Source: a virus
Virus genome (UHGV): UHGV-0125199
DNA length: 64,000 nucleotides
Direction: 5' to 3' (one strand)
In this document: piece by piece, positions 3,474 to 44,530 of the stretch
How the letters are laid out: each line of letters opens with the position of its first letter
Numbering within the stretch: the stretch's first letter is position 1
Position numbers and translations under genes: made by a program
The notes under the pieces: generated by a model
What the model was told of the DNA's origin: nothing
The model's input: the letters and a program-made list of their open reading frames with translations, nothing else
The model's database searches: none

Positions 3474-3848
3474 TTATCCACTAATTGCAGATTTCAAACC
3501 TCTCAAAAGATTAGGGGTAACTGGTGTCAAATATGGATTGTCAATTCTATCTTTTACACCATCAATACTATCGTACCAATAATCACATTCAAGATACGGC
3601 ATATATTTTCCATCTACACAATAAATTTTGTTTCCTTTATATTCTTCCACAAAATATTGCTCTTCACTTTTTCTTTTACACTCTTCAGAACATACCGGAG
3701 CATTGACTCTTCTATTAAATGTTATGATGTTCCCATTGATATCTTTCTTTTTAAAATTTCCAAACAGTGTTGTCTTTGAACACATAGCAAAATCTTTAAG
3801 ACCAAATTGCTCATACTCTTTTCCACATACTGGACATTTCCATTTCAT
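3474..3848 (-). CDS. hypothetical Zn-ribbon protein
   Basis: N-terminal CPVCG...C and internal CSEEC pairs. Confidence 0.4.
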   Translation of the reverse strand: MKWKCPVCGKEYEQFGLKDFAMCSKTTLFGNFKKKDINGNIITFNRRVNAPVCSEECKRKSEEQYFVEEYKGNKIYCVDGKYMPYLECDYWYDSIDGVKDRIDNPYLTPVTPNLLRGLKSAISG

Positions 3849-19101: not shown

Positions 19102-19467
19102 TTATTTGCACAAGATCAATCCACTTTTTAACATATCCGAAAACCATTCATGGAAGTCGTGATACTCTGTCTTGTCAATAATATCCCGATAAATTTCTTT
19201 TAGCTGATTTTTTGAAAATGTTTTATCCATAGCGTCTGGGAGTGATTCTCGATTATCTTCTGAAAAGTAATATCTGTTTTCAGCTTCTTCATAATTTTCA
19301 ACAAATTCTTTCAGTTCCTCCAGCGTGTCAAAACGTTTATAAAAATCTGTTTCAATCCATTTACCATTTTTATTGATATATTTTGTAGCTGTCCATTTGT
19401 GTTTACAACAGTCACAATATACAGCAGAAAATGCAATGTTTTCATTTAATGTTTTAAAAGTATACAT
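19102..19467 (-). CDS. hypothetical protein, first gene of leftward block
   Basis: ORF; 'CDCCKHKW' Cys cluster. Confidence 0.4.
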   Translation of the reverse strand: MYTFKTLNENIAFSAVYCDCCKHKWTATKYINKNGKWIETDFYKRFDTLEELKEFVENYEEAENRYYFSEDNRESLPDAMDKTFSKNQLKEIYRDIIDKTEYHDFHEWFSDMLKSGLILCK

Positions 19468-20595
19468 TTTTACTACCTCTCTTTCTTAATATCCAAAAAC
19501 TACCCAGTAACCAACCATGCTGACTGTTAATACAATCGGCATTAACAGAGTCGTGATCTCGTTAATTCTGTTTTTCAGATTTCTTTTCTTTCTTCTCATT
19601 TTGATTACCTCTCATTCTTATCTGATTGTTTATTCTCTCTTTTATTCTCAGCTACGCAAGCCATCTGCGGAAACATTAGAAGTAAAGTCGTTTCTACTAC
19701 TCACTGCCACGGGTCTTATGCTTTTGCCCGAAACGTATCTTTCTTTGCTTGTTTTCTATGCCTTGCATAGTCAAAATAAAATAAAAACAGATTCACAAGT
19801 GATTCACAGCCTCGTTATCTAAACCTTGCTTTTCAGATTCTAAAATCCTATCTGTGATTGACTCCGCTTTTCTGCTAGTTGTTTCTGTCGTGGTATCCTC
19901 TACACGTCTGAATTATTGTTATCCTGTATTCTTCAGCCTTTTTCAGCCTTACATAAAGCCACTTCGATTCTTTATGCGGATAGTTTTATTATACGGTGTC
20001 TACCTTTTCACCCGTCCGTTGTACTCATATTTCTGGCAACGTCAACGCTCATTCTTTTTTTATATCCTTTACGAGTCGGATATATTTTTTTGTTATTCCG
20101 TATTATTATTTAAAGGACTTGCCGACTTGACAAGTCCTGATTTACAAGTTACAATAATTTATGAGTTGTCGTGTATATATTCTTTTGCTTCTTGTTCCGT
20201 TGGACACTTTACAAGTTGCATATGGTCTGAATTGTACACGACTGTTTCATTGTCGTATGTTATATAGTACATACGTTTTCACCTCCCTTCTGTTGGAAGT
20301 GAAAGTTATACGTGCTTATTTCTTTTTAGTTCCACCGCATTGCACAATTTAAAAATGTGTTGTATAACATTTTTTAGCGGTTTTTATGTGTCTACTCTGT
20401 TTTTTTCGCCTATCATCTTATCTCATGTCCTTTACATCCAATTAACAAGCTAGATGCTATATGCTCAAGTTTATACAGATACGGCTTGTTATTGTAATGC
20501 TATCCCGAATTATCGTCAGCGATACTTAACTTTTCGATTTTTCAATGTACAAAATTTTTAAAAGGAATTTTTCACAAGAACTTGTGAAACACGAC

Positions 20596-20624
20596 TTGAA
20601 AAGCGAATACTAAAATGTTAGAAT
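20596..20624 (+). promoter_or_regulatory. sigma-A-type promoter TTGAAA-17 nt-TAGAAT
   Basis: -35 TTGAAA (20596-20601), 17-nt spacer, -10 TAGAAT (20619-20624). Confidence 0.5.
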
Positions 20625-20630
20625 ATATAT

Positions 20631-20705
20631 AATCACTTTTCAAGAAGTGTTTGGAAAGAGCAGTCATTGTTTGGTTGGTAGCCTTGCGACTGCTCTTTTG
20701 TTTTC
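20631..20705 (+). ncRNA. candidate ~75-nt small RNA (two hairpins, second is intrinsic terminator)
   Basis: promoter upstream; hairpin CACTT-TTCAAG-AAGTG; terminator stem AAGAGCAGTC/GACTGCTCTT + TTTTGTTTT. Confidence 0.45.
20657..20705 (+). terminator. rho-independent terminator
   Basis: 10-bp GC-containing stem followed by T-run. Confidence 0.6.
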
Positions 20706-20718
20706 CTTTTGTGATTAT

Positions 20719-20748
20719 ATAATATCATATGTTTTTATGTTTGTCAAT
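20719..20748 (-). promoter_or_regulatory. sigma-A-type promoter on minus strand TTGACA-17-TATTAT, convergent with plus-strand promoter across the terminator hairpin
   Basis: reverse complement of 20743-20748 = TTGACA; of 20719-20724 = TATTAT; 17-nt spacer. Confidence 0.5.
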
Positions 20749-20765
20749 CATTTTTGATTATTTTT

Positions 20766-20987
20766 TTAATCTTTTTCGATTATTATTTTTGCTTTATATC
20801 CTAATGGGTTTATAATCTCATTTGTTTCATCGAGTGATAAATTCTTTTTATTTATTTTACGATTCAAATTTTGATTTACAATTCCCATTTTTTCAGCAAG
20901 TACTATTTTTTTTATGCCCGACTCTTTTATAATGTTATTGATCGTACTTGATAATTCAGCGTTGTTATTTATGTCCACTCTGATCAC
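20766..20987 (-). CDS. small HTH (Cro/XRE-like) DNA-binding protein
   Basis: 'KKIVLAEKMGIVNQNLNRKINKK' HTH-like. Confidence 0.5.
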   Translation of the reverse strand: MIRVDINNNAELSSTINNIIKESGIKKIVLAEKMGIVNQNLNRKINKKNLSLDETNEIINPLGYKAKIIIEKD

Positions 20988-23464: not shown

Positions 23465-24988
23465 CTATGCTTTATGTCCACCAATTTGATTATTCCTATC
23501 TATTGCAGTAGCTCCTTCTTGTAGACTCATGCCTTTTAAAATTGCATTTTTCCCAAATTTTTTCTTGATATCCAAGACAGCTTTCTGAATATCTTTTTCT
23601 TTTTTAAGTTGTTCCTGGTCTACTGCATTTTCCTTTTCAGCAATCATATCAAATAAATTAAGCTGTTCATATCTATCCTTTTTCGCTTCCTTTTCGCTGA
23701 TCACATGATTTGCAGACATATTGATTCTTCTGACAAGTAAATTTTCGTCTACAATTCTACTGAATAAATCAAGCACAGCTCTTACAATCACGCTAGTAGA
23801 AGACGTATAACTATCTAAATTTACTGTTCCATGAGCATGTTTTGGAATCTTTCTCCCATATTGATCAAAAGAGAACTCACCTTTATACTTACTCATTCTG
23901 GAAGAATCTAATAGATTTTCTCTATCGTAGCCAATCGTTAATACAATCTGATCCGTTACAAGATTCTTACTAACCAAATCTAAGACCAGCATCTCAGTCA
24001 TTTCACGTACAATAATTTTCGTTTTATCAAAATCAGTTCCACAGTGTAAAACCTGTCCGCTTCCAATACTATTGCTCTCCGGCTTATATGCTTTTATATC
24101 TGAAATTGTAACCGGTTCATAACCCCATGCATGGTCAATCAAAAGCTCTGTATTTTTACCAAACATTCTACGCAGCAAGTCTTCATTATAATAATCTGAC
24201 TCTTTTCCAAGAGAACATCTTGCGATATCGCCCATTGTATATAGTCCTACAGATTCTAATTTTTTAATATACCCTCTACCTACTCGCCAAAAATCAGTCA
24301 ATGGTTTATGTTCCCATAGCTTCTCTCGATATGACTTTTCATCCAATTCTGCAATTCTCACACCATTTTCATCTGCAGGTATATGTTTGGCAACAATATC
24401 CATTGCTATTTTACAAAGATACAAATTAGTTCCTATTCCTGCGGTTGCAGTAATTCCAGTTGTATTCAAGACATCCAATATCATCTTCTGTGCAAGTTCT
24501 TTTGCGGATAATCCATACGTATTCAAATAAGAAGTCACATCCATAAATACTTCATCAATAGAATATACATGGATATCTTCAGGAGCAACATATTTCAAAT
24601 AGATATTATAAATCCTTGTGCTATATTTCATATAAAAAGCCATACGTGGTGGAGCCACAATATAATCAACTTTTAAATCCGGATTTGTATCAAGAATTTT
24701 TTTACTATATGACTGTCCGGGAAACTCATTCTTTTTCAATCGATATAATCTTGTTGCATTAATTTCTTGCACCCGCTGCACAACCTCAAATAATCTTGGT
24801 CTTCCAGATATACCATATGATTTCAAAGACGGCGTTACTGCAAGACAAATTGTTTTCTCTGTACGACTGTTGTCTGCAACAACTAAATTCGTATCCATTG
24901 GATCCAAGCCACGTTCTATACACTCTACTGATGCGTAAAAACTTTTTAGATCAATCGCAATATATGACTTATTATTCATGCAGCACAC
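23465..24988 (-). CDS. Y-family DNA polymerase (UmuC/DinB/UvrX-like translesion polymerase)
   Basis: 'YIAIDLKSFYASVE' catalytic Asp motif region; palm/finger 'SIDEVFMDVT'. Confidence 0.75.
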   Translation of the reverse strand: MCCMNNKSYIAIDLKSFYASVECIERGLDPMDTNLVVADNSRTEKTICLAVTPSLKSYGISGRPRLFEVVQRVQEINATRLYRLKKNEFPGQSYSKKILDTNPDLKVDYIVAPPRMAFYMKYSTRIYNIYLKYVAPEDIHVYSIDEVFMDVTSYLNTYGLSAKELAQKMILDVLNTTGITATAGIGTNLYLCKIAMDIVAKHIPADENGVRIAELDEKSYREKLWEHKPLTDFWRVGRGYIKKLESVGLYTMGDIARCSLGKESDYYNEDLLRRMFGKNTELLIDHAWGYEPVTISDIKAYKPESNSIGSGQVLHCGTDFDKTKIIVREMTEMLVLDLVSKNLVTDQIVLTIGYDRENLLDSSRMSKYKGEFSFDQYGRKIPKHAHGTVNLDSYTSSTSVIVRAVLDLFSRIVDENLLVRRINMSANHVISEKEAKKDRYEQLNLFDMIAEKENAVDQEQLKKEKDIQKAVLDIKKKFGKNAILKGMSLQEGATAIDRNNQIGGHKA

Positions 24989-25039
24989 CTCCTACTATAT
25001 GTATCATAACAAAAAATTTAAAATTTATCCATATAAAAT

Positions 25040-25053
25040 CGAAAGTATGTTTG
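25040..25053. promoter_or_regulatory. possible degenerate LexA/Cheo-like box (CGAAAGTATGTTTG) upstream of Y-polymerase operon
   Basis: 11/14 match to Firmicute CGAACATATGTTCG consensus; located 52-65 nt upstream of start codon. Confidence 0.3.
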
Positions 25054-25086
25054 CTTTGTTATGTGTCTGTATCAAATAAAACAAAA

Positions 25087-25131
25087 AGAGCAGATTAGAA
25101 TTCTAATGAACTCTTCTGCTCTTTCTGTTTT
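25087..25131. terminator. bidirectional intrinsic terminator
   Basis: AGAGCAGA...TCTGCTCT stem flanked by A-run upstream and T-run downstream. Confidence 0.55.
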
Positions 25132-25305
25132 TAGCAACTATAAAATAAATTATAATTACTATTTATTACTACTCTAAAACACCTACAATTTACAATTATA
25201 ATACTATACTTTCATATTTTTATCAAGATATTTTTACATATTTCGACAAAATCCCCTTTTTTTCTAAAAACACATCAAATTAATTAGATTGTACTACCGC
25301 TATAT

Positions 25306-25803
25306 TTAAAACTCAATTCTACAATGCAACATTATCTTTAATGGTTTATACATTTTTGAATGAAAAATTTGCGGATCAGGAAGATCAAATTCTTGATCCA
25401 CTCCTAAATCTGTTTCTCTAAGTACAGTCCCTACAACCTTCATTGACATTCCATTTTCTTCAGCTAATTTATTTATATGATGAACATAGCCATCATAATA
25501 TCCGATTCCTTCAAATTTAAATTGTACTTTTGTTTCTATCATTCTGTTTTCAGAAAATGACAAATCCTCTACAATAGGACGAGAAAATTTATTTAAATAA
25601 CATTCCTCATAGAAAGAAATAATCCTTTTGCCATCTTCTGTAATATACTTACCCTCTTTTGCCTTTTCTTTTATATCGCTTTTAACTTCCATGAAATCAT
25701 ATTCAGCAAACTTCATACCATATTGATAATCATCTTGATACTTTTCTGTAGCAGCTTCCTCCGGTGTTTTTGATATTTCATTTAATTCATCCAAAAAACT
25801 CAT
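25306..25803 (-). CDS. hypothetical protein (165 aa)
   Basis: ORF; terminator downstream. Confidence 0.45.
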   Translation of the reverse strand: MSFLDELNEISKTPEEAATEKYQDDYQYGMKFAEYDFMEVKSDIKEKAKEGKYITEDGKRIISFYEECYLNKFSRPIVEDLSFSENRMIETKVQFKFEGIGYYDGYVHHINKLAEENGMSMKVVGTVLRETDLGVDQEFDLPDPQIFHSKMYKPLKIMLHCRIEF

Positions 25804-26360
25804 AGTACTACTCTCCTATTCCTTTTGATATTTACATAGTAGCACAATACTATGAATTTTTATAGAAATTTTTAAATCGTTAAGAGAATTAAAGTATGAA
25901 ACAAAGAAACCGTTCAAATATTTTTAATAATAAAGGGAGAAATGATATGAGCAAATTGTAAATAATGATTTAAGAAAATAAGGATTTAATGAAGAAGCAT
26001 AAAAGAAATTATAAAAAATTTTTCTATTTCAATTTAAATTGTATCTTTGCGTCAGCAAAGACTTTGCGAAGCAAAGTGAAACGGAGACACGAAGAAAGGG
26101 TCGCCTGCGGCTCTTTCTGAAGTGGATCCAACATTACCTAGATCTCTCTATATATAAGGAATTACGAATTTATATCAAAAAAATTATTTATAAAGAGAGA
26201 ATTATTAACTGGGGGAAGGAAGACCAAATTCATAAGTCTTACTACGCACCTTGTTCGCCAAGGCTCACAATCTGCTAGTGCGACTAAATGAATTATGCTC
26301 TTTTTTGCACTTCCCCCAGACCCCCTTCGCGCACTATAAAATGGATAAAAAATTCAATTA

Positions 26361-26390
26361 AAATCTCTCTAAACCCTTATAAACACTGGG
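26361..26390 (+). repeat. 30-bp direct repeat copy 1 (AAATCTCTCTAAACCCTTATAAACACTGGG)
   Basis: identical copy at 26461-26490; degenerate copy at 33025-33047. Confidence 0.8.
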
Positions 26391-26416
26391 TTTTTGTCGA
26401 AAAACATCCTTTAAAG

Positions 26417-26446
26417 TCTCCCTATATTATATATATATTAGGGAGA
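26417..26446. repeat. perfect 30-bp palindrome TCTCCCTATATTATATATATATTAGGGAGA between the direct repeats
   Basis: self-complementary 8-bp arms around (TA)n core. Confidence 0.8.
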
Positions 26447-26460
26447 AATGAAAGGATGCG

Positions 26461-26490
26461 AAATCTCTCTAAACCCTTATAAACACTGGG
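26461..26490 (+). repeat. 30-bp direct repeat copy 2
   Basis: identical to 26361-26390. Confidence 0.8.
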
Positions 26491-26548
26491 AAAATTGGCA
26501 TTTTAGGTGTGCAAAAAACGATAAAAAACTAATTTAAGGAGAAAACAC

Positions 26549-27652
26549 GTGAACAAATTAAATATCAAAAAAGGGAAAATTACAGAAAAAAAATTAGTAG
26601 AGCTATATGGGAGTGATGCGCAGAAAAAATCATATAAAGAAAATGGACGTTTTATAAGTAACTATAAAAAGACTTTACTTACAAAAATGTCTCGATATTG
26701 TAACATTGAAGATTTAGGTGGCAGAACATATAGAATCAAAAAAGTATATGACTATCCTCTTCCATCAAATTTCAATAAGATGACAAAATCATTATATCAA
26801 TATATTGTTCCTCTTCTACTTACTAACTTAATTAATGGTCACGACGAAAATAACAAAATAGATATAACAGTTGGAAAATGGGCGAGAGAAATTAATATGG
26901 TAAATAAAAATTATAATCTTGTTAAATACAACAGAGAAGATACGAGTAAAGAAACGCAGTGTTCTTTAGATACTATAAATGAATTTTATGACAAAGCTGA
27001 TGACATGATTGAATGGTACATAACAAATGCACTTGATTATTTAAAATCTGCAGGATTAGTTATCTGGAGAGAGGTTTATAGAGTAAACGAAGAAATATCA
27101 AGCGGCAAAAATATTATTGATGAAAACGGGAATATACACGTTGATATTTCTATTGATAGTCATCAAGCATCTGAAGATGAAATGAACTACTACTCTCATT
27201 GTGTTTCAATTGCTGATAAAGCAGCAAAAATAGAAAATGCTGGAGAACGATATTATAGTAAAAAATCAAAATTATTTGGAGAAGTATTAAAGAAAGAACT
27301 ATATAAAAAGAAAATCAAATGTGTTTTCAAAACATATGAAGCATATTATGTAGATCTTGACAAATGCAATTTTATATTAAAACAGTTTGGTAAATTCAAA
27401 ATGAATAATTTAATAAGTGAATTCAATAAAGAGTTTACAGATTTATTGGTTGGAAATGCGGAAAAAAGGTTTGATAAAAATCCGGATAAATATTTTTCTT
27501 ATGCAGAAAAGGATGATTACAGCTTATGTTTTCAAAATTTATGCGAAATAACAATTGATAAAAATACAGAATATCTTGGAAACAGAATAAGAGAAAAAAC
27601 AATTAATGATGATTATACTCTAAAAATCACATCATCAAGGAAAGGAAAATAG
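26549..27652 (+). CDS. hypothetical protein (367 aa), GTG start, translationally coupled to downstream UvrD-like helicase
   Basis: stop 5 nt before helicase ATG; no recognisable motif by eye. Confidence 0.5.
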   Translation: MNKLNIKKGKITEKKLVELYGSDAQKKSYKENGRFISNYKKTLLTKMSRYCNIEDLGGRTYRIKKVYDYPLPSNFNKMTKSLYQYIVPLLLTNLINGHDENNKIDITVGKWAREINMVNKNYNLVKYNREDTSKETQCSLDTINEFYDKADDMIEWYITNALDYLKSAGLVIWREVYRVNEEISSGKNIIDENGNIHVDISIDSHQASEDEMNYYSHCVSIADKAAKIENAGERYYSKKSKLFGEVLKKELYKKKIKCVFKTYEAYYVDLDKCNFILKQFGKFKMNNLISEFNKEFTDLLVGNAEKRFDKNPDKYFSYAEKDDYSLCFQNLCEITIDKNTEYLGNRIREKTINDDYTLKITSSRKGK

Positions 27653-27656
27653 ACAT

Positions 27657-29534
27657 ATGAATTTTAATAAACAACAAGAAGAAACTATTAATACAATAGA
27701 AGGAAACGTGGCGGTTATTGCCACAGCAGGTTCCGGTAAAACAACTGTTCTTACCCATAGAATTAAAAAAATGGTTGAAGAACATAATATATTACCATCT
27801 TCTATCCTGGCAATTACTTTTAGCAAAAAAGCAAAAGAAAATATAAACGAAAAACTAATGGAACTTAATATATCGAATGTATCTGTAGAGACTTTTCATT
27901 CATTTGCTTTGAAGATTATCTCCTCTGTGTATGGAATCAAAAAATTTAAAATATGGACAACACCATGGGAAAAAGAAAAAACAATAAAATGGATTTGTAG
28001 TGACTCTTTATTACTTTGCGATTCTGATAATGTCCCATACAACGAAATTACATCGTTTATTGCGTTGCAGAAAAATAACATGAAAACCCCAAATGATGAT
28101 TTAATTTACACTCCGGATCCCCCATTTAAAGAAGAGGATATGAAACAAATATATAAAACTTATGAAGAGTATAAAGAAATCAATTCACTTATTGAGTTTG
28201 ATGATTTTTTGAACATGGCAAATAAAATTTTTGATACTGATTATTATACTTTAGAAAAGTATCGAAATATTTTTCAGTATATATTAGTTGATGAATTTCA
28301 GGATATTTCAATTTCTCAAGCATTACTTTTAAGAAAATTAAACACAAAAAACACAATGATCGTCGGAGATCCTCTTCAGGCTATTTATTCATTTAGAGGT
28401 GGTGATAGCAGATTTATTCTAAATTTTGATACTGATTATAAAGATGTAAAAGTTATTAATCTAAATACAAATTATAGATGTAGCAAAGATATTGTATTTA
28501 CAGCAAATAAACTTGCGTTAAGTATTCCTGATTCTCAACACAAAAATTATGTAGAGAGTATTTCAAATAAAGAAAATTTTCAAATTCCTGAGTTAAGACA
28601 TTTCCCTGATGATTATGAAGAATGTTTATGGGTTGCATCAAAAATAGGAGAATTAAAATTTAAAGGATACGATTACAACGACATTGCCATCCTCGCCAGA
28701 ACAAATGCTCAATTACAAAAACTAGAGTCAACGCTGCATGATGAAGATATAGCATTTGAAATTGTTGATGGTAAAACTTTTACAGAATTACCAGAGATCA
28801 AATTGATAATTTCTTACTTTAAACTTGCGTTAAACACAAATGATAATGAATCGTTTTCTTATCTATACAATAAACCAAATCGATGGTTAGATAAAAAATT
28901 TTTAAAAGAAGTAACAGATAACAGTTTTAAAAGAAATATATCATTATACAATTCAATGTTCACGATTGACAGGAGAAATTGGAGATTCAAAAAAGGTATC
29001 GATGAAATCATTGAAGTAATAAATTATTTACAAAACAATCAGAATTCCAACATTTCAGATTTGGTAAGATTTTTGAGAAACAGATTAGACATTGATAAAT
29101 TTGTTACAAAAGGAAAGCAATCAGATGATGGAAGTTATATTGAACAAATCGACAACCTTAACAGTTTTGAAAATATTTGTTCCAAATACTCTTCCATTAA
29201 AGAATTTGTTTCATACATAGATGAGTTAAATACAGAAATGGAGAATAAAGATAATGATAAAGTCAAATTACTTACAATTCATAAGTCAAAAGGTATGGAA
29301 TATCCTGTCGTGTTTATCATTGGATGCAATGAAGAAATCCTGCCACACTATAAGAATGAAAATGTTGATGATGAACGTAGGTTATTCTATGTCGCAATTA
29401 CAAGAGCCGAAAAAGAATTATATCTATCATATGTTGATTTATATAATGGTCAAACAAAATTGATAAGCTCTTTTATTAAAGATGTTGAAAATACAATTAA
29501 AATTATAAAAAACGAAAAAATAAGTGGTGAATAA
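27657..29534 (+). CDS. UvrD/PcrA/Rep-like superfamily-1 DNA helicase
   Basis: Walker A 'ATAGSGKTTVL', 'ILAITFS', 'VDEFQD' (motif II), 'GDPLQAIYSFRGG', 'TNYRC', 'LTIHKSKGMEYPVVFIIG'. Confidence 0.8.
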   Translation: MNFNKQQEETINTIEGNVAVIATAGSGKTTVLTHRIKKMVEEHNILPSSILAITFSKKAKENINEKLMELNISNVSVETFHSFALKIISSVYGIKKFKIWTTPWEKEKTIKWICSDSLLLCDSDNVPYNEITSFIALQKNNMKTPNDDLIYTPDPPFKEEDMKQIYKTYEEYKEINSLIEFDDFLNMANKIFDTDYYTLEKYRNIFQYILVDEFQDISISQALLLRKLNTKNTMIVGDPLQAIYSFRGGDSRFILNFDTDYKDVKVINLNTNYRCSKDIVFTANKLALSIPDSQHKNYVESISNKENFQIPELRHFPDDYEECLWVASKIGELKFKGYDYNDIAILARTNAQLQKLESTLHDEDIAFEIVDGKTFTELPEIKLIISYFKLALNTNDNESFSYLYNKPNRWLDKKFLKEVTDNSFKRNISLYNSMFTIDRRNWRFKKGIDEIIEVINYLQNNQNSNISDLVRFLRNRLDIDKFVTKGKQSDDGSYIEQIDNLNSFENICSKYSSIKEFVSYIDELNTEMENKDNDKVKLLTIHKSKGMEYPVVFIIGCNEEILPHYKNENVDDERRLFYVAITRAEKELYLSYVDLYNGQTKLISSFIKDVENTIKIIKNEKISGE

Positions 29535-29961
29535 TAAGTAATCCTACTTTATGTATTTTGTTTCTAAATGGTGAATTAAAATATGTCCCACATTCAATAA
29601 ACATCATTTAGGAATTTGTAACTTGAAAATCAAATTTCATTTCATTTAAAGAAAGGAGTTATGTGAATGAAAACATAATTATATTTTCTATCACATTAGA
29701 ATTGCAGCGAAGATATCCCTAGAAAATATCTTCCATCGCACAAGTTTTTGTGGATGTTTCATCCACGGTTGGTTTGGATTATTGCGGTAAGTCAGAATCT
29801 AACGTTCCAGACTGCTGCTCTGATCCAAAAGAAATGATGCAATTAGTTAATAGTCAAATTTAAATAAAGAGAATAAATATATGAAACTTATAGTCATCAC
29901 TCAATTAAAGGAGCGAGTCCAATGACAAACAAAAATTATGAAAACAGAGGAGATTTAATTT

Positions 29962-30189
29962 ATGAAAACAAGTACATATGTAACACCAGGAAGCCATAAT
30001 CTTCAGATTCCAAATCGGAGCGAATTTCACAAGTATCTAATTGAAAACATTACAGTTGGTGATTTTAGTACAGGTGGTTGTGCAGATGGTGGAACAAAAA
30101 TTAAGAAAATTGCACACGCAATCAATTGGTCAAAGGCTATGCATAATAAATACTATATTAAGAAATTTTCAGAAGAAAATAGAAAATAA
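29962..30189 (+). CDS. hypothetical small protein (75 aa)
   Basis: good RBS AGAGGAG; ORF. Confidence 0.4.
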   Translation: MKTSTYVTPGSHNLQIPNRSEFHKYLIENITVGDFSTGGCADGGTKIKKIAHAINWSKAMHNKYYIKKFSEENRK

Positions 30190-30210
30190 GTTTAACTACA
30201 TAAGAATGAG

Positions 30211-32982
30211 GTGAGTAAAATTAGTAAATACGGAATTAAGATTAAAAATATAAAAGCAGGTATGATTTATGATGTAAATATTGGAGTGAGAGACTATTTC
30301 ACTTACACTGAAGCGATGTTAAATAATAGTTTGTTTAGCTATCACCTTAAGAAAAATGGTATAAAAATTTATAAAAAACCAAAGTCTGATAAAGAATCTA
30401 CGCGTGATATAATATGTTTAGACTTTGATTTTGGAAGTCGTTCTTACGAAGAAGAGAAAAAAAGACTCGAAAAATTAGAAAACAATGCAACGACAATAGA
30501 TGATAAAAATAAAATAAAATATTTACTAAAAGAAATAGGGAAAAAAGAAAAACTATACAATGGTAAAAATAGAGATAAAATCAGAGAAGATTTTTATCAG
30601 AATGGAGTAGATATTTCATATAGACACACCGATAAAAAAACAAAAAAAGAAGTTGTTGAAACAATACATTATCTTATGCTATTTAGAACGAGTGCAAAAG
30701 CTAAAGTTGGACAAGTTATTTTTATAAATGAAAACTTATATGATGATGCATACGATTGGCTTACAATCGGATTAGGAAAAAAAATGTCTTATGATAACGC
30801 AAAAATAGTTGAGATGTCTGCTTATGCACCACTTACCACATCTACTATTGTTGGAACATTAAAAATTCCGGTAGAAGACATTTTAATATTAAAAGATCAG
30901 GATTCATTTTTTTCTACATTTACGAGTGTAGTAAAAGCTGAAGAGTATATTGATAGTTCTGGAAACAAAAAGAAAAAATGTATTGTTGAATCAGAAGAAA
31001 GAGAAGTTAAAAACACACTATGGGATGGTATGGGTATTATTGAATCATCAATTTTGCCGGGATGGATAAATGGGATGGCTTTATTACGAAATCATTTATT
31101 TAAGATGTGCGGTTTTAAAGGACATGTACAATTATTCTTTAAAGATTGGTGCAAAAAAAATAATCATGACTATAATACATATCAAGTTGAAGATATGTTT
31201 GGATGTAAACATTATTTAAAAGACATCAAGATTATCACAACAGATAATTCTATAAAGTGGAAAAAATTTATTGATATTATGGGCGGAACATTATCTTCTG
31301 CTTATGAATATTGGTGTGATAAAATTCGCGAAGATGGCAACATATGGGGAGTTGTAAAAACAGATCATCAAAGTAAATTTGAAAACTCGCAGCAGTTAAG
31401 TTATCAAATGATAAACACTCTTCCGTGCACTAAAGAAGACGTGTATGACATCGCATCAGATACAGTTAAATATATCGAAACATTGAAAACAGATAATGTT
31501 GAATTTGAAAAGTTTTTACGAAAATATGCAAATGAAATAAACCATTATCAAATGTTGGCTGATTTATACAGACATAATCCTGATTTCGCCAATTGTGGAT
31601 GGTTCAGAAATGAAAAGAAAAAAATTATTTTTGAATATGTTAACAGAATGAGAAAAGGCAAAATATTAGTAAATGGAGATAATTTGACTGTCTGTGGAAA
31701 TCCTTATGCTCTTCTACTCTATTCAGTAGGTGAAAATTGGGAAGAAGATCCTACATTTTCAAAAGAAGAAAATAGTATTCAATGTTATACAAGAAGATTT
31801 AGTAACGATGAATATCTATGCGGTTTTAGGAATCCACATAATTCACCGAATAATGTATGTCACTTTCATAATGTATATAGTCAGGAAATGTCTAGATATT
31901 TTGATTTTAGCAAAAATATTATGGCTGTAAATTGTATAGGAACTGATGTCCAAGATAGAATGAACGGGGAAGATTTCGATTCAGATTTTAATCTAGTCAC
32001 TAATAATCCAGTGATGGTTAAATATGCCGAAATTTGTTATAGAGATTTTCCAACCATTGTTAATGATCTCAAAGAAAGCGGAATCACATACAAGAATACA
32101 TTATTAGAATATGCACGTATGGATAATAAATTTTCTAAATCCAGAATTGGCATTGGCTATTCCAGTAATCTTGCACAATTAGCCTTGACTTATTATTGGA
32201 CAGAGTTGCAAAAGGATAATCCTAATGAAGAACGATTGCATGAGTTATATGATAATTTTGTGATTTTATCTGTTCTTGCTCAAGTTATAATTGATGGATG
32301 TAAAAGGGAATACGAAATTGATGGAATGAAAGAAATCGACAGGATCAGCAAAATGCCATGTATGAAATTAACAAAGCAAGTAGTTGATGAAAACGGTAGA
32401 ATTAAAAGTGTTAAATTTGATTTTCCGAAGTTTATGAAATATACAAGAGCTATAAAAACAACAAAAAACGGGAAAGAAATTCCACAAAAGGAAATACACG
32501 AAAAAAAAGTGAAATTGAAAAATAGAATCAACCCATCTCTTGTTTGCCCTATGAATTGGTTAGAGGAATGCTTAGACACTATCAAACCTGCGGCAAATTC
32601 ACACTCAACCCCTATTAGTGATTTTTTTATAAAAATGCCTGGCAAACCTAATAACAGACAAATGACAAAAATTAGGAGTCTTATTGAAGAATATGACTTA
32701 TTTGTTAAAAATTTACATATAACAAATGACGATGACGATATAATAATCGAAGAAATGATTTCTAAATCCGAAAAATTATTAGACAGCCTATGCAAAATTA
32801 AAGTTGGAAATATAGTAACTATAAATAGAATGATAGAGGTGGCTCTAGGTCTCGATAAAGGAATCGGAAATGGATCCAAAACGAAGAACATAAACTTAAA
32901 ATATTCAAGAAAAATTTTAAATTATTTACACAAAATGGACAAAGATAAATTTTTATTGAATTTTAAACCAAAACAAATTTAG
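30211..32982 (+). CDS. large hypothetical protein (923 aa); candidate divergent two-double-psi-beta-barrel RNA polymerase (YonO/QDE-1-like) - inference only
   Basis: 'NRMRKGKILVNGD' (aa ~478-490, resembles beta-subunit 'RHGNKG' Lys motif), 'GFRNPHNSP' (aa ~538, cf. beta-prime 'NRAPTLH'), 'GEDFDSDFN' (aa ~586-594, cf. 'NADFDGD'). Confidence 0.35.
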   Translation: MSKISKYGIKIKNIKAGMIYDVNIGVRDYFTYTEAMLNNSLFSYHLKKNGIKIYKKPKSDKESTRDIICLDFDFGSRSYEEEKKRLEKLENNATTIDDKNKIKYLLKEIGKKEKLYNGKNRDKIREDFYQNGVDISYRHTDKKTKKEVVETIHYLMLFRTSAKAKVGQVIFINENLYDDAYDWLTIGLGKKMSYDNAKIVEMSAYAPLTTSTIVGTLKIPVEDILILKDQDSFFSTFTSVVKAEEYIDSSGNKKKKCIVESEEREVKNTLWDGMGIIESSILPGWINGMALLRNHLFKMCGFKGHVQLFFKDWCKKNNHDYNTYQVEDMFGCKHYLKDIKIITTDNSIKWKKFIDIMGGTLSSAYEYWCDKIREDGNIWGVVKTDHQSKFENSQQLSYQMINTLPCTKEDVYDIASDTVKYIETLKTDNVEFEKFLRKYANEINHYQMLADLYRHNPDFANCGWFRNEKKKIIFEYVNRMRKGKILVNGDNLTVCGNPYALLLYSVGENWEEDPTFSKEENSIQCYTRRFSNDEYLCGFRNPHNSPNNVCHFHNVYSQEMSRYFDFSKNIMAVNCIGTDVQDRMNGEDFDSDFNLVTNNPVMVKYAEICYRDFPTIVNDLKESGITYKNTLLEYARMDNKFSKSRIGIGYSSNLAQLALTYYWTELQKDNPNEERLHELYDNFVILSVLAQVIIDGCKREYEIDGMKEIDRISKMPCMKLTKQVVDENGRIKSVKFDFPKFMKYTRAIKTTKNGKEIPQKEIHEKKVKLKNRINPSLVCPMNWLEECLDTIKPAANSHSTPISDFFIKMPGKPNNRQMTKIRSLIEEYDLFVKNLHITNDDDDIIIEEMISKSEKLLDSLCKIKVGNIVTINRMIEVALGLDKGIGNGSKTKNINLKYSRKILNYLHKMDKDKFLLNFKPKQI

Positions 32983-33024
32983 TGTTTATGCACAAAAATT
33001 GCCGAATTATTTTGTCAAAAGTTA

Positions 33025-33047
33025 CTAAACCCCTTGTAAATAGTGGG
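33025..33047 (+). repeat. degenerate third copy of the 26.36-kb direct repeat (CTAAACCCCTTGTAAATAGTGGG)
   Basis: 18/23 identity to core of DR; followed by GTTTT as in DR1. Confidence 0.5.
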
Positions 33048-33925
33048 TTTTCAAGAAATCAACTTCGTCCGTAATATGGAAGGATGAGAGTTTTGCTTAT
33101 ATTCAAAATTCTTGAGATGAAATCAAGACTCTTAAGACGACAAACGCTATTGCCAAAGCGTTTAATAAATATGGAGATATATCTATAATAAAGCCCCTAT
33201 TGAAAGGGGCTTGGGCTTTGCCCAATATAAGCACTTGCTTATAAATACAAATAACTCAGTGCAGATTGGCTTGTCACCATGCTGAGAATATATGAATAGT
33301 GAGTTGCGGTATAATACGATAGTTTTATACTGCAGCTTCTGGAATGATGTGAATCATAAACAGAAAGACGGAAACCGTCAAAACTAAATATATGTACAAT
33401 AATATATTGCCGTAAAACGCAATTGCCAGATCGCTGACATAATAGACGACTCCAGTGGAGTAATAATCGTGATGCCTGTATCGGTGGAATGTTACAGAGA
33501 GATAAGTAGCGAAAATCCAAATAAGTCAGTTGCGTCGTTGATCGGAAGAAATTCCAGTATAAGATCTGTCGAATGTACGAGTAGCCCAAAGTGACGTGAG
33601 ATTAATACATAAAGAACAAAAAAATTAAATCTTATTATGAATTTTCTTAATACGCTGAATGACATGGGTGAAAGTTTCTCGTAATCAGTCGAGGCTACAA
33701 TTGCTGTTTATCAGATGTAAAGGAAGTCTAAGGGTAGCTCCCTTATTCTCAGCCCTTTACAAGTAGTGGCGGAATATTATGACGATATATTTGAGTAGGA
33801 AGAAGTTCCATTTGTATTTATAATCAAGTGCTTATGCGCGCACTTGACGATTTCTAATCTCCTTTTCAGTTAGTAATAGCATTGCTGTTCTGGTAGTGCT
33901 GTTGCTAACATCTTAGGAGTATTTT

Positions 33926-33997
33926 AGCCCCATCGCCAAGCGGTAAGGCACAGGACTTTGACTCCTGCATTCAGTAGTTCGAATCTACTTGGGGCTG
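33926..33997 (+). tRNA. tRNA-Gln (anticodon TTG)
   Basis: acceptor AGCCCCA/TGGGGCT, D-arm, anticodon stem CAGGA/TCCTG loop CTTTGAC, T-arm AGTAG-TTCGAAT-CTACT, discriminator G. Confidence 0.75.
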
Positions 33998-34181
33998 CTA
34001 TCATCCGAAGTGTTGCGCTGACCGTCAATCAGTGGCGCATAAAAACCTATCCCAGTATAAATCCAGGTGACACTGGCTTATATGAAGATACGCTCTAGGT
34101 TTACTACGTTTTATATAACTATTCACATAACAATTATTTTGTCGTCCTTGTGGATGGGTGTTTTGGACGAGCAAACAATAA

Positions 34182-34277: not shown

Positions 34278-34351
34278 TGCAGGCGAGTGGAACGGATTAC
34301 TACGTCAGACCCATAATCTGAAAATACTGGGTTCGACTCCCAGGCTCTGCA
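34278..34351 (+). tRNA. tRNA-Met(CAT)-like element, probably degenerate (C33, imperfect acceptor stem)
   Basis: D-arm GTGG/CTAC, anticodon stem TCAGA/TCTGA loop CCCATAA, T-arm CTGGG-TTCGACT-CCCAG; acceptor pairs only 6/7 with a bulged G. Confidence 0.35.
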
Positions 34352-34628
34352 ATACTCTCCCACTGTGGAGAAATATACAACGAAAGGAATGTTTTATCAT
34401 AGTTCTTATTACAGACAAAGAATGTAAATTTTTGTTAATCAAAGGATGGAAATGGAGAGATCATATTCATCGCACTGTATCCGGAGCAAACAAAAAATAT
34501 GCAACAGAAAATTATCGATTGATGCAAGATTTAGAAAATTTTAGATCACAGTCGATTAAAGAAACAATTCAGATTAAAAAACGTAAAAAATAACTAGAAT
34601 TAAACTAGAGGAAAGGTGGTTCACCTTA

Positions 34629-35876
34629 TTGGAATGCACATTATTCCTTGATACGAATGCATTACTTAGTCTCGGCGAAAATGCATTTAAAGAAAAATTT
34701 ATTATTGCACAAAAGACACTTGAAGAGATCGAGAATATCAAAGTGTCTAATTCTAAAGATGGAGAAGTAAAATACAAAGCCAGACAAATTTCAAGACTAT
34801 TGGATAAACATGATGGCGAATATGATGTGGTTTTATACTCTCCAAAAATTAAAGAAATAATTGATAGTTATTTCTTATCTGAAACGCCAGACAACATTAT
34901 CTTGGCTTCTGCTTATTATTACAATTCAAATGTATCGGAAGTACTTGTATGTTCTGATGATTTAAATTGCAAATTCATATCTCGTAATATTTTTGGACTT
35001 CCTACAAAGGGAGTTTCGGATATTAACCTTGTCAAAAATCTTGACGAATATCTTGGATATAAAGAATTAACATTGTCTGATGAAGAAATGAGTTACTTCT
35101 ATTGTCATACAAATGAAAACATTTATGATTGTATTTTGAACGAATATCTCATTATTAAAAAATCAGATGGAGAAGTTGTTGATTATAGAAAGTGGGACGG
35201 TTTTGAATATAAAGCTGTATGTGAAAAAACAGTTCGCTCTACTATTTTTGGAGATAAAATTAGACCGAAAGATTCATATCAAGCCTGTGCTATTGATTCA
35301 ATTTTTTCAAATACAATGACAGCTATTACCGGACATGCAGGTAGCGGGAAATCATTGATATCACTAATATCTATGATGAGTCTTATTGAAAATGGAGAAT
35401 ATGATAGAGTGATCATTATGTTTAACCCTAATAAAGCAAAGGGTGCTGCAGATATGGGTTTCTATTGTGGTAATGCTACTGAAAAGGCACTTCAAAATTC
35501 TATAGGTTCCATGTTAACTACAAAATTTGGTGATAGATTTGCTGTTGAAATGTTGTTGCAGCAAGATAAAATTCGATTAGTATCTATGGCAGATGTACGA
35601 GGAATGGAAGTAAGGGATAATGAAATTTTATACATTAGTGAAGCGCAGAATACATCAATCGAATTATTAAAGTTGTGTTTATCAAGAGCAAGTAGCGGAT
35701 GTAAAATTGTTATCGAAGGTGATTATGATAGCCAGGTTGATTCTTATTTATTTGAAGGAAATTCAAATGGTTTTAAACGCGCAATTGATGTGCTTCAAGG
35801 TGAATCAGAATTTGGATATGTACATCTTCCGAATGTTTGGAGAAGTAAAATTGCAATGTTAGTGGATAAATTATAG
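34629..35876 (+). CDS. PIN-domain + PhoH-like ATPase fusion protein
   Basis: N-term 'LFLDTNALLSL' PIN start; Walker A 'GHAGSGKS'; PhoH-like C-terminus. Confidence 0.7.
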   Translation: MECTLFLDTNALLSLGENAFKEKFIIAQKTLEEIENIKVSNSKDGEVKYKARQISRLLDKHDGEYDVVLYSPKIKEIIDSYFLSETPDNIILASAYYYNSNVSEVLVCSDDLNCKFISRNIFGLPTKGVSDINLVKNLDEYLGYKELTLSDEEMSYFYCHTNENIYDCILNEYLIIKKSDGEVVDYRKWDGFEYKAVCEKTVRSTIFGDKIRPKDSYQACAIDSIFSNTMTAITGHAGSGKSLISLISMMSLIENGEYDRVIIMFNPNKAKGAADMGFYCGNATEKALQNSIGSMLTTKFGDRFAVEMLLQQDKIRLVSMADVRGMEVRDNEILYISEAQNTSIELLKLCLSRASSGCKIVIEGDYDSQVDSYLFEGNSNGFKRAIDVLQGESEFGYVHLPNVWRSKIAMLVDKL

Positions 35877-35881
35877 AGAGG

Positions 35882-36097
35882 ATGTTTGTTATAAAAGCTA
35901 AACCTATTTTTAATAGTTTTAATATAAATAACAAAACATTAAACCTTGGAACGTTTGCTAAAATTGAAGATGCAATTGAAGCGAGAAAATCAGCAGAAGT
36001 AAAATATTTTGGTGAATTTAGATTTGATATGTCCAACAAAGATATTATAAATGAAGCTAATCTGGAAGATCATTTAATTTATAAAAAATGCAGTTAA
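35882..36097 (+). CDS. hypothetical small protein
   Basis: ORF immediately after PhoH gene. Confidence 0.35.
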   Translation: MFVIKAKPIFNSFNINNKTLNLGTFAKIEDAIEARKSAEVKYFGEFRFDMSNKDIINEANLEDHLIYKKCS

Positions 36098-41020: not shown

Positions 41021-41044
41021 TGGAGAGCTGTGCTGCTCTCCTAT

Positions 41045-41116
41045 TTTTGTATTTGGCTCCATGGTCAAGAGGCTAAGACATCGCCCCTTCACGGAGGTAA
41101 CACTGGTTCAATTCCA
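41045..41116 (+). tRNA. tRNA-Glu (anticodon TTC)-like, with G29-A41 mismatch and C33
   Basis: acceptor GGCTCCA/TGGAGTC, loop CCTTCAC, 'GGAGGTAACACTGGTTCAATTCCAGT' closely parallels bacterial tRNA-Glu. Confidence 0.55.
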
Positions 41117-41203
41117 GTTGGAGTCATTATTATATTCCGGCTTTCAAAAGAAATGCCGGTTTCATATCGGCAGAAAATAGAAAAAAGAAAGCGAGGGAAA
41201 ATA

Positions 41204-42121
41204 ATGGTAACATTACAGAAAATTGGTGGTGACATGAATCGTAATGTATTAGAGATTACTGGATTATCTACAGACGAAAAACCTGTTGAATTTATCGAAA
41301 CAACATACATTACCAATGGAAGCACATATGAAGAAATTGATACTGGTACAGTGTATAAATATAACGAATCTGGCAAGAAATGGATAGAGCAACCTGCAAT
41401 TGGTGGTTCAGGCGGAAATATTTCTCTTGATTATACTGCATTAACAAATAAGCCACAAATTTCCGGAATTGAATTAACTGGAAATAAAACCTTGGATGAT
41501 CTTGGTATTCAGAAAAAAGGTACTTATATTACAAAAGAAACTGATCCAACTGTACCGGCATGGGCGAAAACTGAAGCAAAACCGACATATACCGCAGACG
41601 AAGTTGGAGCCTTACCAAAAACTACGACTACACTTCCAAATCCTAAAAAGATTAAATTTACAGGTGCAGTAACAGATGAGTATGACGGTTCTGTCGAAAA
41701 AACAATTAACATTCCGACAGGAAGTTCTTATACTCTTCCACAGGCAACTGATCAGGTTCTTGGTGGTGTGAAAGCAAAAGCAAAGACAAACGAAACCGTA
41801 GAAGTTGCAATTGATACTACAACAGGCAAATTATTCGTCCCGGCTTATCCAACTGGTGCAGGAGCTGAACTTGACAAAACACTTGCTGTGGAAGGAAAAG
41901 CTGCGGATGCAAAAGCTGTTGGAGATGCATTGAAAACTAAGATTGGATCCGATGCTCTTGCACCATATATGAAGACAGTTGATGCAGATAAAAAGTATGC
42001 ATTAAAAACTGAATTACCACAAAAGGGAGTTGCTGTCGCAGACGCTGGAGATGCAGATGTCAAAGATAAATTAAATGCTTTGTTGGCAAGTCTCAGAACT
42101 GCTGGGATTATTGCTCAGTAA
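41204..42121 (+). CDS. tail-fiber-like structural protein (306 aa from ATG at 41204; track ORF 41030 start is an artefactual extension across the tRNA)
   Basis: RBS GCGAGGGAAAATA-ATG; C-terminal 'YTLPQATDQVLGGVK...LNALLASLRTAGIIAQ' shared with 55411..55818. Confidence 0.5.
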   Translation: MVTLQKIGGDMNRNVLEITGLSTDEKPVEFIETTYITNGSTYEEIDTGTVYKYNESGKKWIEQPAIGGSGGNISLDYTALTNKPQISGIELTGNKTLDDLGIQKKGTYITKETDPTVPAWAKTEAKPTYTADEVGALPKTTTTLPNPKKIKFTGAVTDEYDGSVEKTINIPTGSSYTLPQATDQVLGGVKAKAKTNETVEVAIDTTTGKLFVPAYPTGAGAELDKTLAVEGKAADAKAVGDALKTKIGSDALAPYMKTVDADKKYALKTELPQKGVAVADAGDADVKDKLNALLASLRTAGIIAQ

Positions 42122-43538: not shown

Positions 43539-44530
43539 AAATATCACGAGTGGAGGAAATAACAAATGAGTAAATATGTTTACAATAAAGATTATTTCGA
43601 AAAAATTAACACATCAGAAAAAGCATATTGGCTAGGTTTTTTATATGCAGATGGATGTATTACAAGATTTTATAAGGGAGAAGTATTAAAATCTATGTCT
43701 TTAGAAATTACTTTAAAAGACGCAGATTGTGAACATCTTATTAAATTTAAAAACGCTTTAGAAAGTAATATTCCTATTCAACATAGAATTATTACCGGGA
43801 AATATAAAGCAGATAGAATAGTTGTTAATTGCACAAAAATATGTAATGATTTAATCAAATTAGGTTGTACTCCGACTAAAAGTCTAACATTAGAATTTCC
43901 TATAAAAGATATAATACCTCAAGATTTTATAAGAGACTTTATTAGAGGTTATTTTGATGGAGATGGTGGTGTATCTTATACTGAAGGTAAATATTATAAT
44001 AATGCTAGAAAAAAATATTACAAACAGCATCACTATCGATGCTATTTTTGTGGAAACATACAATTTTTAACTGAATTAAAAAAAATATTGAATTCTAATG
44101 GAATTAAAACATCTGATCTAAAAAAAGACAATAGAAGTAATGCAATTAATATTTATATATATGGAAGAGAAAATATAGAGAAATTTAAAAATTATATATA
44201 TACAGAGGGGTGTGTGAACTTATCAAGAAAATTTGATAAGTTCTTTTTTATTTCCCACAATAGCGATCTTCATATAAATAGATAACGCCATGTTTAGCCC
44301 TGTCTAAATTGGGGAAAATCGGTGAAGACTAAATTTATTTAAAATATAAAATAAATATGTTAATACCGAGATAACTTAATAGATTTCGTAAGGCTATTAA
44401 GCATTGTAGAGAGTAGAGATTGAATAAATATAATATCTCCAAGAGTCCCCAACTACATTATTGTAGAAAATGTACTCCAAGCTGAGTTGGAAATGACCAA
44501 CTGATGAAAATGAAGGAAACTTCCAGAGCA
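43536..44530 (+). mobile_element. ~1-kb intervening sequence in terminase large subunit gene carrying a LAGLIDADG homing endonuclease ORF (probable group I intron)
   Basis: TerL reading frame resumes at ~44531 (in-frame '...DKKPMVNNILKTWLTALF...'); HE ORF free-standing with own RBS. Confidence 0.55.
43566..44285 (+). CDS. LAGLIDADG-family homing endonuclease (two-motif, single-chain)
   Basis: 'AYWLGFLYADGCI' and 'FIRGYFDGDGGV' LAGLIDADG motifs. Confidence 0.75.
   Translation: MSKYVYNKDYFEKINTSEKAYWLGFLYADGCITRFYKGEVLKSMSLEITLKDADCEHLIKFKNALESNIPIQHRIITGKYKADRIVVNCTKICNDLIKLGCTPTKSLTLEFPIKDIIPQDFIRDFIRGYFDGDGGVSYTEGKYYNNARKKYYKQHHYRCYFCGNIQFLTELKKILNSNGIKTSDLKKDNRSNAINIYIYGRENIEKFKNYIYTEGCVNLSRKFDKFFFISHNSDLHINR

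Follow-up and report, generated by a model that had tools for sequence, protein, structure and literature searches.

Introduction

Work published in 2017 established that the YonO protein of the Bacillus phage SPbeta is a minimal relative of cellular RNA polymerases (PMC5467207). A YonO-dependent start site was found 3′ of yonO (coordinate 2225998 of B. subtilis 168), ahead of an unannotated non-coding RNA; that study did not define the promoter (Forrest et al. 2017, PMC5467207). A limited literature search yielded no published YonO promoter. A second known element of the locus described here is ROOL RNA, whose nanocage structures have been solved and whose biological role is unknown. The ROOL family was described in phages, beside tRNAs (PMC5737381). 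The present work concerns positions 26361–33047, and their surroundings, in a stretch of 64,000 nucleotides (nt) from UHGV virus genome UHGV-0125199; “the window” designates this whole stretch. The segment of interest carries four genes and three related repeats. An earlier note, made from the sequence alone, read it as a mobile cassette of ~6.7 kb bounded by the repeats. Our best explanation, judged jointly with its U-box element and YonO-type late promoter, is that the segment, which opens the rightward arm of an SPbeta-like Lachnospiraceae phage, probably consists of three independent neighbouring units and not of one cassette. Read in this way the block is neither a defence island nor a mobile element. 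Its backbone is a new, distant relative of the SPbeta/YonO kind.

Gene organization and natural variants of the region

The window is AT-rich (~32% GC). Its genes are oriented leftward up to 25803 and rightward from 26549, with a divergent intergenic region of 750 nt between them. The four co-directional open reading frames (ORFs) on the + strand (26549–27652, 27657–29534, 29962–30189 and 30211–32982) code for proteins of 367, 625, 75 and 923 amino acids (aa). These are named p367, the helicase, p75 and p923, respectively. Two exact 30-nt direct repeats, AAATCTCTCTAAACCCTTATAAACACTGGG, are found at 26361–26390 (copy 1) and 26461–26490 (copy 2), both inside the divergent intergenic region; shuffled sequences gave 0 matches. 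The degenerate copy 3, positioned 3′ of the p923 gene (33025/6–33047), retains 19 of the 22 core bases with a 1-nt insertion, against a chance expectation of 0.00. The earlier note had described accurately the identical pair, the degenerate third copy and the four co-directional genes, as well as the translational coupling of the first two, in which 4 nt separate the p367 stop codon from the helicase ATG. The palindrome that it called perfect (26417–26446) is self-complementary at only 24 of its 30 positions and corresponds to the inner stem and top of a longer hairpin (26405–26458). Its statement that the repeats bracket the genes is misleading, as copies 1 and 2 are both 5′ of the first gene and copy 3 belongs to the next transcription unit.

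The extent of the optional DNA is revealed by phages that lack it (genomes used for comparison are designated by L numbers). In L019 and L008, which are 95–99% identical to the window in the flanks, only positions 25958–29560 are missing: homology in blastn ends at 25957 and resumes at 29561. The segment replaced comprises the control region, the p367 gene and the helicase gene. Bro-N and Rha/Ant genes and a gene for an unrelated 358-aa protein are found in its place, while the p75 gene, the p923 gene, the third repeat and the ROOL RNA stay put. The 358-aa protein of L019 was considered as a p367 homologue and rejected. The left breakpoint is the Bro-N start codon and the right one is 26 nt past the helicase stop codon; neither is at a repeat. 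The window retains a 4-codon remnant of the Bro-N start (ATG AGC AAA TTG TAA; 25947–25961, + strand), and the same ribosome binding site and ATG begin the full Bro-N gene in L019 and L008.

Because the natural breakpoints (25957/58 and 29560/61) lie away from the repeats, the 6.7 kb do not form a discrete element with the repeats as its ends. Near-identical phages lose only 25958–29560 and keep p75, the polymerase and the third repeat; therefore what is truly optional is a 3.6-kb module on the + strand, made up of the p367/helicase pair and the 590-nt control region that precedes it. The accessory character proposed in the earlier note thus holds for the first two genes and their control region only. 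The p75 and p923 genes belong with the third repeat to the conserved backbone and are located where SPbeta has yonP–yonO. Relatives at 80% identity (L001, L017, L024) tell against the cassette as well: all four genes are there in order, without exact repeats, which are degenerate and only weakly recognisable. The earlier note had itself named such a finding as one that would speak against its proposal. Many yonO-like loci lack p367 or the helicase. Homologues of p367 (55–100% identity) have the helicase directly next to them in 38 of 40 loci, and a yonO-like gene usually 1–5 kb downstream. Domain searches identified no recombinase or transposase domain in the four proteins of the block, and megablast of the block against deposited phages gave no match.

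The predicted YonO-family RNA polymerase and its small neighbour

The earlier note had recognized p923 (30211–32982, + strand) as RNA polymerase-like. It is a distant homologue of YonO, a single-subunit RNA polymerase, and would itself synthesize RNA on a DNA template and transcribe the late genes. Alignment to SPbeta YonO with hhalign gave a probability of 92.7% (E 4e-7, 382 columns), and BLASTP a collinear match with 22% identity (E 0.001). The DFDSD sequence of p923 (residues 588–592) is aligned with the catalytic DNDGD of YonO, and D588, D590 and D592 are invariant in 17 homologues. The homologues number more than 1300. In relatives, the YonJ, YonG, YomV and YomU Pfam families and an HU-like protein are encoded downstream of the yonO-like gene, as in the SPbeta gene order. 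A cultured Enterocloster phage has the same layout, and a scan of genome contigs with the alignment as query found prophage copies in Lachnospiraceae and Eubacteriales genomes. A PDB profile search with p923 returned noise only.

The 75-aa ORF directly 5′ of the polymerase gene (29962–30189, + strand) is a real gene. Its product features the motif IPxRSEFHKY..DFxT, and in at least 13 of 30 diverse loci a homologue is encoded immediately 5′ of the yonO-like gene. The gene occupies the position of yonP in SPbeta; p75 and YonP have no sequence similarity. A terminator-like hairpin (29748–29768, + strand) is found between the helicase and p75 genes, within the region from 29561 on that is kept in phages without the module.

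Some yonO-like genes are themselves interrupted. Those of L026 (8001–11658), L027 (606–3649) and L022 (8001–11907) are split by insertions of ~0.3–1.3 kb, which may therefore be introns, inteins or homing elements. The insertion point in L026 and L027 is at residues 586/588, adjoining the catalytic DFDSD motif.

The proposed late control region

Motif A (TCGTCCGTAATATGGAAGGATGAG; 33065–33088, + strand) is located between the polymerase stop codon and the ROOL RNA, and is the predicted core promoter and start site of a YonO-type late transcript. Its sequence is also given as TCGTCCGTAATATGGAAGG, and as TCGTCCGTAATATGG in the form that occurs once per genome. A related sequence was found 60–110 nt past the stop codon of every yonO-like gene examined, one per locus. 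This survey took in 34 distinct contexts, some of them prophages of bacterial genomes, and reached relatives with as little as 38–40% identity. Motif A is unique in the 64-kb window (position weight matrix (PWM) score of 29.9, with 11.4 for the runner-up). Among 2.9 million viral contigs, 63 exact matches to the 16-mer of the motif were found, 40 of them directly after a yonO-like gene; about a dozen of the remaining ones have the same upstream context, and the others, inside genes, look like chance. In relatives, motif A precedes a ROOL RNA or tRNAs.

When the loci are aligned on motif A a second element appears, the U-box (AAAMCC-N10-13-GGNTTTT), which ends ~17 nt before motif A and whose position is fixed in 25 aligned phages. 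Repeat copy 3 is the U-box of this region (U-box 3; 33025–33052, + strand), identified by pattern and PWM matches and by its fixed position relative to motif A. In the window it has the form AAACCC-N11-GGGTTT, an imperfect palindrome of ~27 bp. A further conserved block, GCCGAATTAWTT, is found 5′ of the U-box in the aligned loci. In the window box 0 (GCCGAATTATTTT; 33001–33013, + strand), the conserved block 5′ of U-box 3, recurs in L001, L003, L010, L025, L077, L081 and L107. The U-box was also considered as an intrinsic terminator and rejected: its hairpin is weak, with a loop of 11 nt and folding energies between −3.2 and −7.1 kcal/mol (z −0.4 to −2.4), and its right arm is missing in several phages.

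The purine tract GGAGGGAAG that follows the TATG of motif A pairs with a partner of variable sequence to form a 5′ hairpin in 18 of 20 loci. Because this pairing is kept with a variable partner, and a second hairpin further on has compensatory changes, the sequence after motif A is transcribed. From their position, uniqueness and conservation, and from the SPbeta precedent, we infer that motif A and the U-box form the late promoter used by the YonO-type polymerase, which would be p923. The late transcript probably starts at the G of TATGG, and the U-box would be a palindromic upstream promoter element bound by a protein.

A different reading of motif A and the U-box has a low probability in our view: they would either make up a host sigma-A promoter, assisted by an activator or UP site located upstream, or else represent conserved RNA at the processing site of a transcript reading through from the polymerase gene. 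The hexamer TAATAT (TATAAT in L078 and L079) resembles a −10 element and has a T-rich block 18 nt upstream. Transcription and structure are clear for motif A and its downstream sequence, and there is no strong terminator between the polymerase gene and motif A, the U-box hairpins reaching only −3 to −7 kcal/mol. However, position 2 of the would-be −10 hexamer is variable, its A not being conserved (TTATAT, GTATAT, CTATAT, CCTTAT), whereas TATG hardly varies. The aligned loci have no conserved −35 element of the sigma-70 type, resembling TTGACA. A set of ~24 conserved bases with a single occurrence per genome, where the late operon begins and beside a phage polymerase gene, is also unlike sigma-A promoters, and SPbeta has its YonO-dependent start at the equivalent place.

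In SPbeta, an inverted repeat, N18 and TATGAGGG (also written TCATTTATGAGGG) form a unit that is bracketed by the published primer-extension primers, at about position 60436 of AF020713 on the minus strand. It is conserved in Goe11 and phi3T, with a compensatory change in the inverted repeat. The 1.7-kb unannotated yonN–yonK gap of SPbeta (AF020713; positions 19153–20835 of locus L032, minus strand) contains two tandem units of this type (inverted repeat, N18, TATGA(A/G)GG) as well as an Rfam DUF3800-VIII match (47.5 bits) just 5′ of yonK.

Leader, ROOL RNA and tRNAs

Motif A is followed by a structured leader of ~140 nt (33089–33230, + strand). It includes the 5′ hairpin, the sequence ACGC-TATTGCCAAA-GCGT (33144–33161), a second AAATATGGAG (33164–33180) and GC hairpins (33192–33223). 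The hairpin whose conserved loop is TATTGCCAAA shows compensatory changes. The leader is also found in phages devoid of ROOL (L002, L018, L020, L021, L026, L030) and may be an unannotated RNA family. The ROOL RNA comes next (33231–33828, + strand; Rfam RF03087). It is full length (model positions 1–574), with a score of 340.9 bits against a gathering score of 99.1. L001, L010, L011 and L025 have ROOL at the same position, where other relatives have tRNAs. Its place immediately behind a promoter-like element suggests that the phage polymerase makes ROOL as a late product. A tRNA-Gln gene was identified by tRNA and Rfam searches at 33926–33998 (+ strand). A tRNA-like sequence at 34279–34351 scored 33.2 bits with Rfam and was not called by ARAGORN.

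The control region upstream of p367

The ~590-nt region 5′ of p367 contains four elements. The first, E1 (26209–26320, + strand), is a long imperfect hairpin (GGGGGAAGG...CTTCCCCC) with an RNA fold of −45.4 kcal/mol (z −4.9). It is conserved in the L001 clade (87% identity in L001, the 80% relative), and a CTACG..TTCGC..GCTCA motif recurs 5′ of p367 genes in other clades. No Rfam match to E1 was found; it may represent a small RNA or else a structure in the DNA. The second element, repeat copy 1, is a complete U-box (AAACCC-TTATAAACACT-GGGTTT; 26361–26396, + strand). A U-box PWM built from 17 other phages has its top window matches at 26366 (copy 1, score of 20.2) and 33023 (copy 3), both above the shuffle maximum of 16.6. 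The pattern AAACCN{10,14}GGGTTT occurs in the window only at copy 1 and at 33027, for 0.15 occurrences expected.

The third element is a bipartite hairpin or cruciform with an AT-rich top (26405–26458, + strand), made of an outer stem (CATCCTTT/AAAGGATG) and an inner stem (TCTCCCTA/TAGGGAGA). Its DNA fold is −12.3 kcal/mol (z −5.3). Compensatory changes affect 10 of its 16 pairs among 14 phage versions, the outer stem changing in sequence with its pairing kept. The last element, copy 2 (26461–26490, + strand), is the left part of a U-box followed by GGGAAAAYYGG, without the right half (GGGTTT), a variant also found in L053 and in the L001 clade. Twin boxes 100–120 nt apart recur in L053, L064 and L046, and twin boxes that flank the covarying hairpin in three p367 clades. 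They are identical to each other within a genome and differ between genomes. A 29-codon upstream ORF overlapping copy 2 (26448–26537) is probably no gene: it is fused in frame in L001 and absent in other clades, and its start is in the hairpin arm.

The three repeats are copies of a conserved promoter-associated element, the U-box, and not borders of a cassette. The earlier note had considered promoter-like elements spread throughout the genome as a circumstance that would speak against its proposal. The promoter-associated nature is borne out by the presence of this family beside yonO-like genes in many phages; the abundance is not, the complete form being present at just two sites of the window. 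Copy 1 was considered as a full late promoter and rejected. Because no motif A follows copies 1 or 2, they are not duplicates of the late promoter and share only its upstream element. A general role of p367 as U-box binder is ruled out because phages that lack p367 have the U-box; p367 may use these sites in the phages that carry it.

A distant p367 homologue (397 aa, without the helicase) is found in L013 after a 1.3-kb non-coding stretch. This stretch has, at 3500–3760, an array of short TTATAG-type repeats followed by a U-box-like TTAAACCCTTGTAAATACTGGA.

Identity and possible role of the p367/helicase pair

p367 (26549–27652, + strand) belongs to the uncharacterised family phrog_36702. Its structure model is confident (predicted local distance difference test (pLDDT) score of 83.6) and matches only winged-helix DNA-binding domains, so that p367 is a predicted multi-winged-helix DNA-binding protein according to this model. 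Its structural relatives among viral proteins are all uncharacterised, and the family is restricted to uncultured gut phages. No match was found in Pfam, NCBIfam or PADLOC, nor in a PDB profile search, and tblastn against phages and plasmids was negative. The absence of ATPase and TOPRIM signatures from the 367-aa protein, remarked in the earlier note, is consistent with these searches and with the fold. The second protein (27657–29534, + strand) is a PcrA/Rep/UvrD-type SF1A helicase, with Pfam matches to UvrD-helicase (1e-56) and UvrD_C (6e-52) that bear out its first description as UvrD-like. It aligns with residues 11–620 of the 724 of PcrA (PDB 1pjr; E 5e-74), the C-terminal ~100 aa of PcrA, with its RNA polymerase-binding domain, being missing. 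With the NCBIfam pcrA model it scores 364 bits, below the cutoff of 911 for PcrA orthology. The 274 bits obtained with PADLOC GajB models probably reflect generic UvrD/SF1A homology; the PcrA score is higher.

The main rival explanation for the module's role is a portable set of origin, initiator and helicase. The twin U-boxes would be iteron-like initiator sites, the AT-topped hairpin an unwinding element or cruciform, p367 an origin-binding initiator that loads the PcrA-like helicase, and E1 a priming or single-strand-origin-like structure. Taken together as one proposal, this seems unlikely to us. Iteron-binding Rep proteins are winged-helix proteins, like p367, and PcrA is recruited by plasmid initiators. 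The tight coupling of p367 to a PcrA-type helicase in 38 of 40 loci and the identical direct repeats 100–120 nt apart around a structure-conserved AT-rich hairpin in several clades agree with such a function. The module moves with its 590-nt non-coding region, as iteron and rolling-circle modules do, and it is found at the strand switch (~26 kb) and near the cumulative GC-skew minimum (24000–26000). However, near-identical phages live without it, the replacement being Bro-N, Rha/Ant and the unrelated 358-aa protein, so that the module is dispensable. There are just two repeats, far apart (100 nt), where iterons come in closely spaced arrays. p367 has no sequence match to the Rep, DnaD or lambda-O families and no plasmid homologue, and no HUH or Rep_trans nuclease is present. 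The GC skew follows gene orientation, and the same U-box family is found at the late promoter of phages without p367. The cumulative GC-skew minimum at the strand switch is, in its own right, compatible with a nearby origin and confounded by gene orientation.

A role of the pair in defence or anti-defence, either Gabija-like or as a new helicase-based system within an accessory gene set, is possible and in our judgement improbable, no positive evidence having been found. Gabija consists of GajA, an OLD-family nuclease with ATPase and TOPRIM domains, and of the UvrD-like helicase GajB. The resemblance lies in a UvrD-family helicase encoded beside a partner gene and in its score with the GajB models. 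The pair is also optional among near-identical phages, in a variable spot that can hold Bro-N and Ant genes, and the p367 family is confined to uncultured gut phages. The GajB score is, however, exceeded by that of PcrA, to which the helicase is more closely related than to the GajB models. PADLOC detects no GajA or other defence partner, contrary to the echo of Gabija heard in the earlier note. p367 has a winged-helix fold with no ATPase, TOPRIM or nuclease fold. The gene order differs too, with the partner first and the coupled helicase second, and the pair is phage-borne and adjoins the phage polymerase gene. This fixed place in relatives of 55–100% identity and an elaborate conserved control region look like those of an accessory to a core process and not of a shuffled defence island. 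The mobile cassette bounded by direct repeats can be set aside almost entirely, for although three related repeats are near the ends of the four-gene block, the breakpoints of natural variants are elsewhere, the block holds no recombinase or transposase, its polymerase end is syntenic backbone, and the promoter region to which copy 3 belongs is conserved in phages having neither copy 1 nor copy 2.

A working model of the region

The preferred explanation remains that of three neighbouring units. Unit 1 (25958–29560) would comprise the control region (E1, U-box 1, bipartite hairpin and U-box 2), p367 and the coupled PcrA-like helicase. Unit 2 would be the backbone pair of p75 and the YonO-family polymerase. 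Unit 3, made of box 0, U-box 3 and motif A, would be the late control region at the start of the late operon. The U-box at 33.03 kb may help the YonO-type polymerase to initiate a late transcript that would run through the structured leader, the ROOL RNA, the tRNAs and the structural (late) genes. The U-boxes at 26.37 and 26.47 kb would put p367 and the helicase under the same factor as the late promoter. The composite anatomy of the block, the optionality of the module, the relationship of p923 to YonO and the conserved promoter-like region ahead of ROOL are established by the comparisons above. We propose more tentatively, as one combined and rather uncertain idea, that box 0, the U-box and TCGTCCGTAATATGG after 17 nt constitute a YonO-family promoter, that p75 helps in its recognition, that ROOL is the first and probably the most abundant late product, and that the module plugs into this system through its two U-boxes.

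Several results weigh against this scheme. The AlphaFold2 model of p923 is poor (pLDDT of 56.7, with core regions below 50) and does not confirm the fold with two double-psi beta-barrels. The motif A PWM does not recover the SPbeta site significantly. The likeness to SPbeta is short and depends on the TATGAGGG unit and the primer positions only. Neither copy 1 nor copy 2 has a motif A after it, and the spacing between U-box and hairpin varies from 25 to 42 nt between clades. Within a genome, the likeness of p367-upstream and late-promoter U-boxes is marked only in the window clade. Late-promoter U-boxes exist in phages without p367, a hidden Markov model of the p367 family detecting no member near many yonO-like genes.

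The comparative data give a concrete candidate for the YonO promoter in a large family of gut-phage YonO homologues, and a counterpart to it within the part of SPbeta to which the start site had been mapped. The p367/PcrA-like pair and its associated conserved hairpin and twin boxes form an uncharacterised module that is widespread in phages. A limited literature search found no description of the promoter-like composite, its link to ROOL, the p75 family or the p367/PcrA-like module.

Other features of the phage genome

A second variable spot (34621–36095) holds a PIN-PhoH fusion gene (34629–35876); L007 and L009, 99% identical elsewhere, lack this gene or have a replacement for it. A tRNA-Glu gene (41054–41127) is found inside a mechanically predicted 363-aa ORF (41030–42121); because of this overlap the 363-aa gene probably begins further downstream than predicted. 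The window also contains selfish elements in other places, namely a TnpB/IS605 OrfB-like gene (103–1035, − strand) and a LAGLIDADG endonuclease gene (43566–44285, + strand).

Comparison with known systems

Promoters of T7-type RNA polymerases have a conserved sequence of 23 bp, and the non-virion RNA polymerase of phiKZ recognizes a late TATG motif; both are used here by analogy only. Motif A is likewise long, highly conserved and rare, with a purine-rich start (TATG|GAGGG), and is found beside the polymerase gene, at the head of the late genes, with a 5′ stem-loop on the predicted transcript. The differences are that the polymerase belongs to another family and that there is one site per genome instead of many; use of the site by a phage polymerase is a prediction. 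The ROOL RNA resembles the described members of RF03087 in being full length, phage-encoded and adjacent to tRNAs. It differs in coming first after a predicted YonO-type promoter, in the window and in its relatives, an association not found described in the same limited search.

The SPbeta YonO system is among the closest known relatives of the locus. In both, the polymerases are homologous with their DxDxD motifs aligned, a small ORF directly precedes the polymerase gene, and this gene stands at the head of the late arm, with the YonJ, YonG, YomV, YomU and HU families downstream. The two also share the order of a promoter-like unit just 3′ of the polymerase gene, a non-coding RNA and then the late genes. 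They differ in several respects: p923 is only 22% identical to YonO, the host is a member of the Lachnospiraceae and not Bacillus, and no relationship links YonP to the small protein encoded upstream of p923. ROOL with tRNAs is here the non-coding RNA, and the U-box with TCGTCCGTAATATGG takes the place of the SPbeta inverted repeat, N18 and TCATTTATGAGGG. Finally, the window has an optional winged-helix/PcrA-like module upstream.

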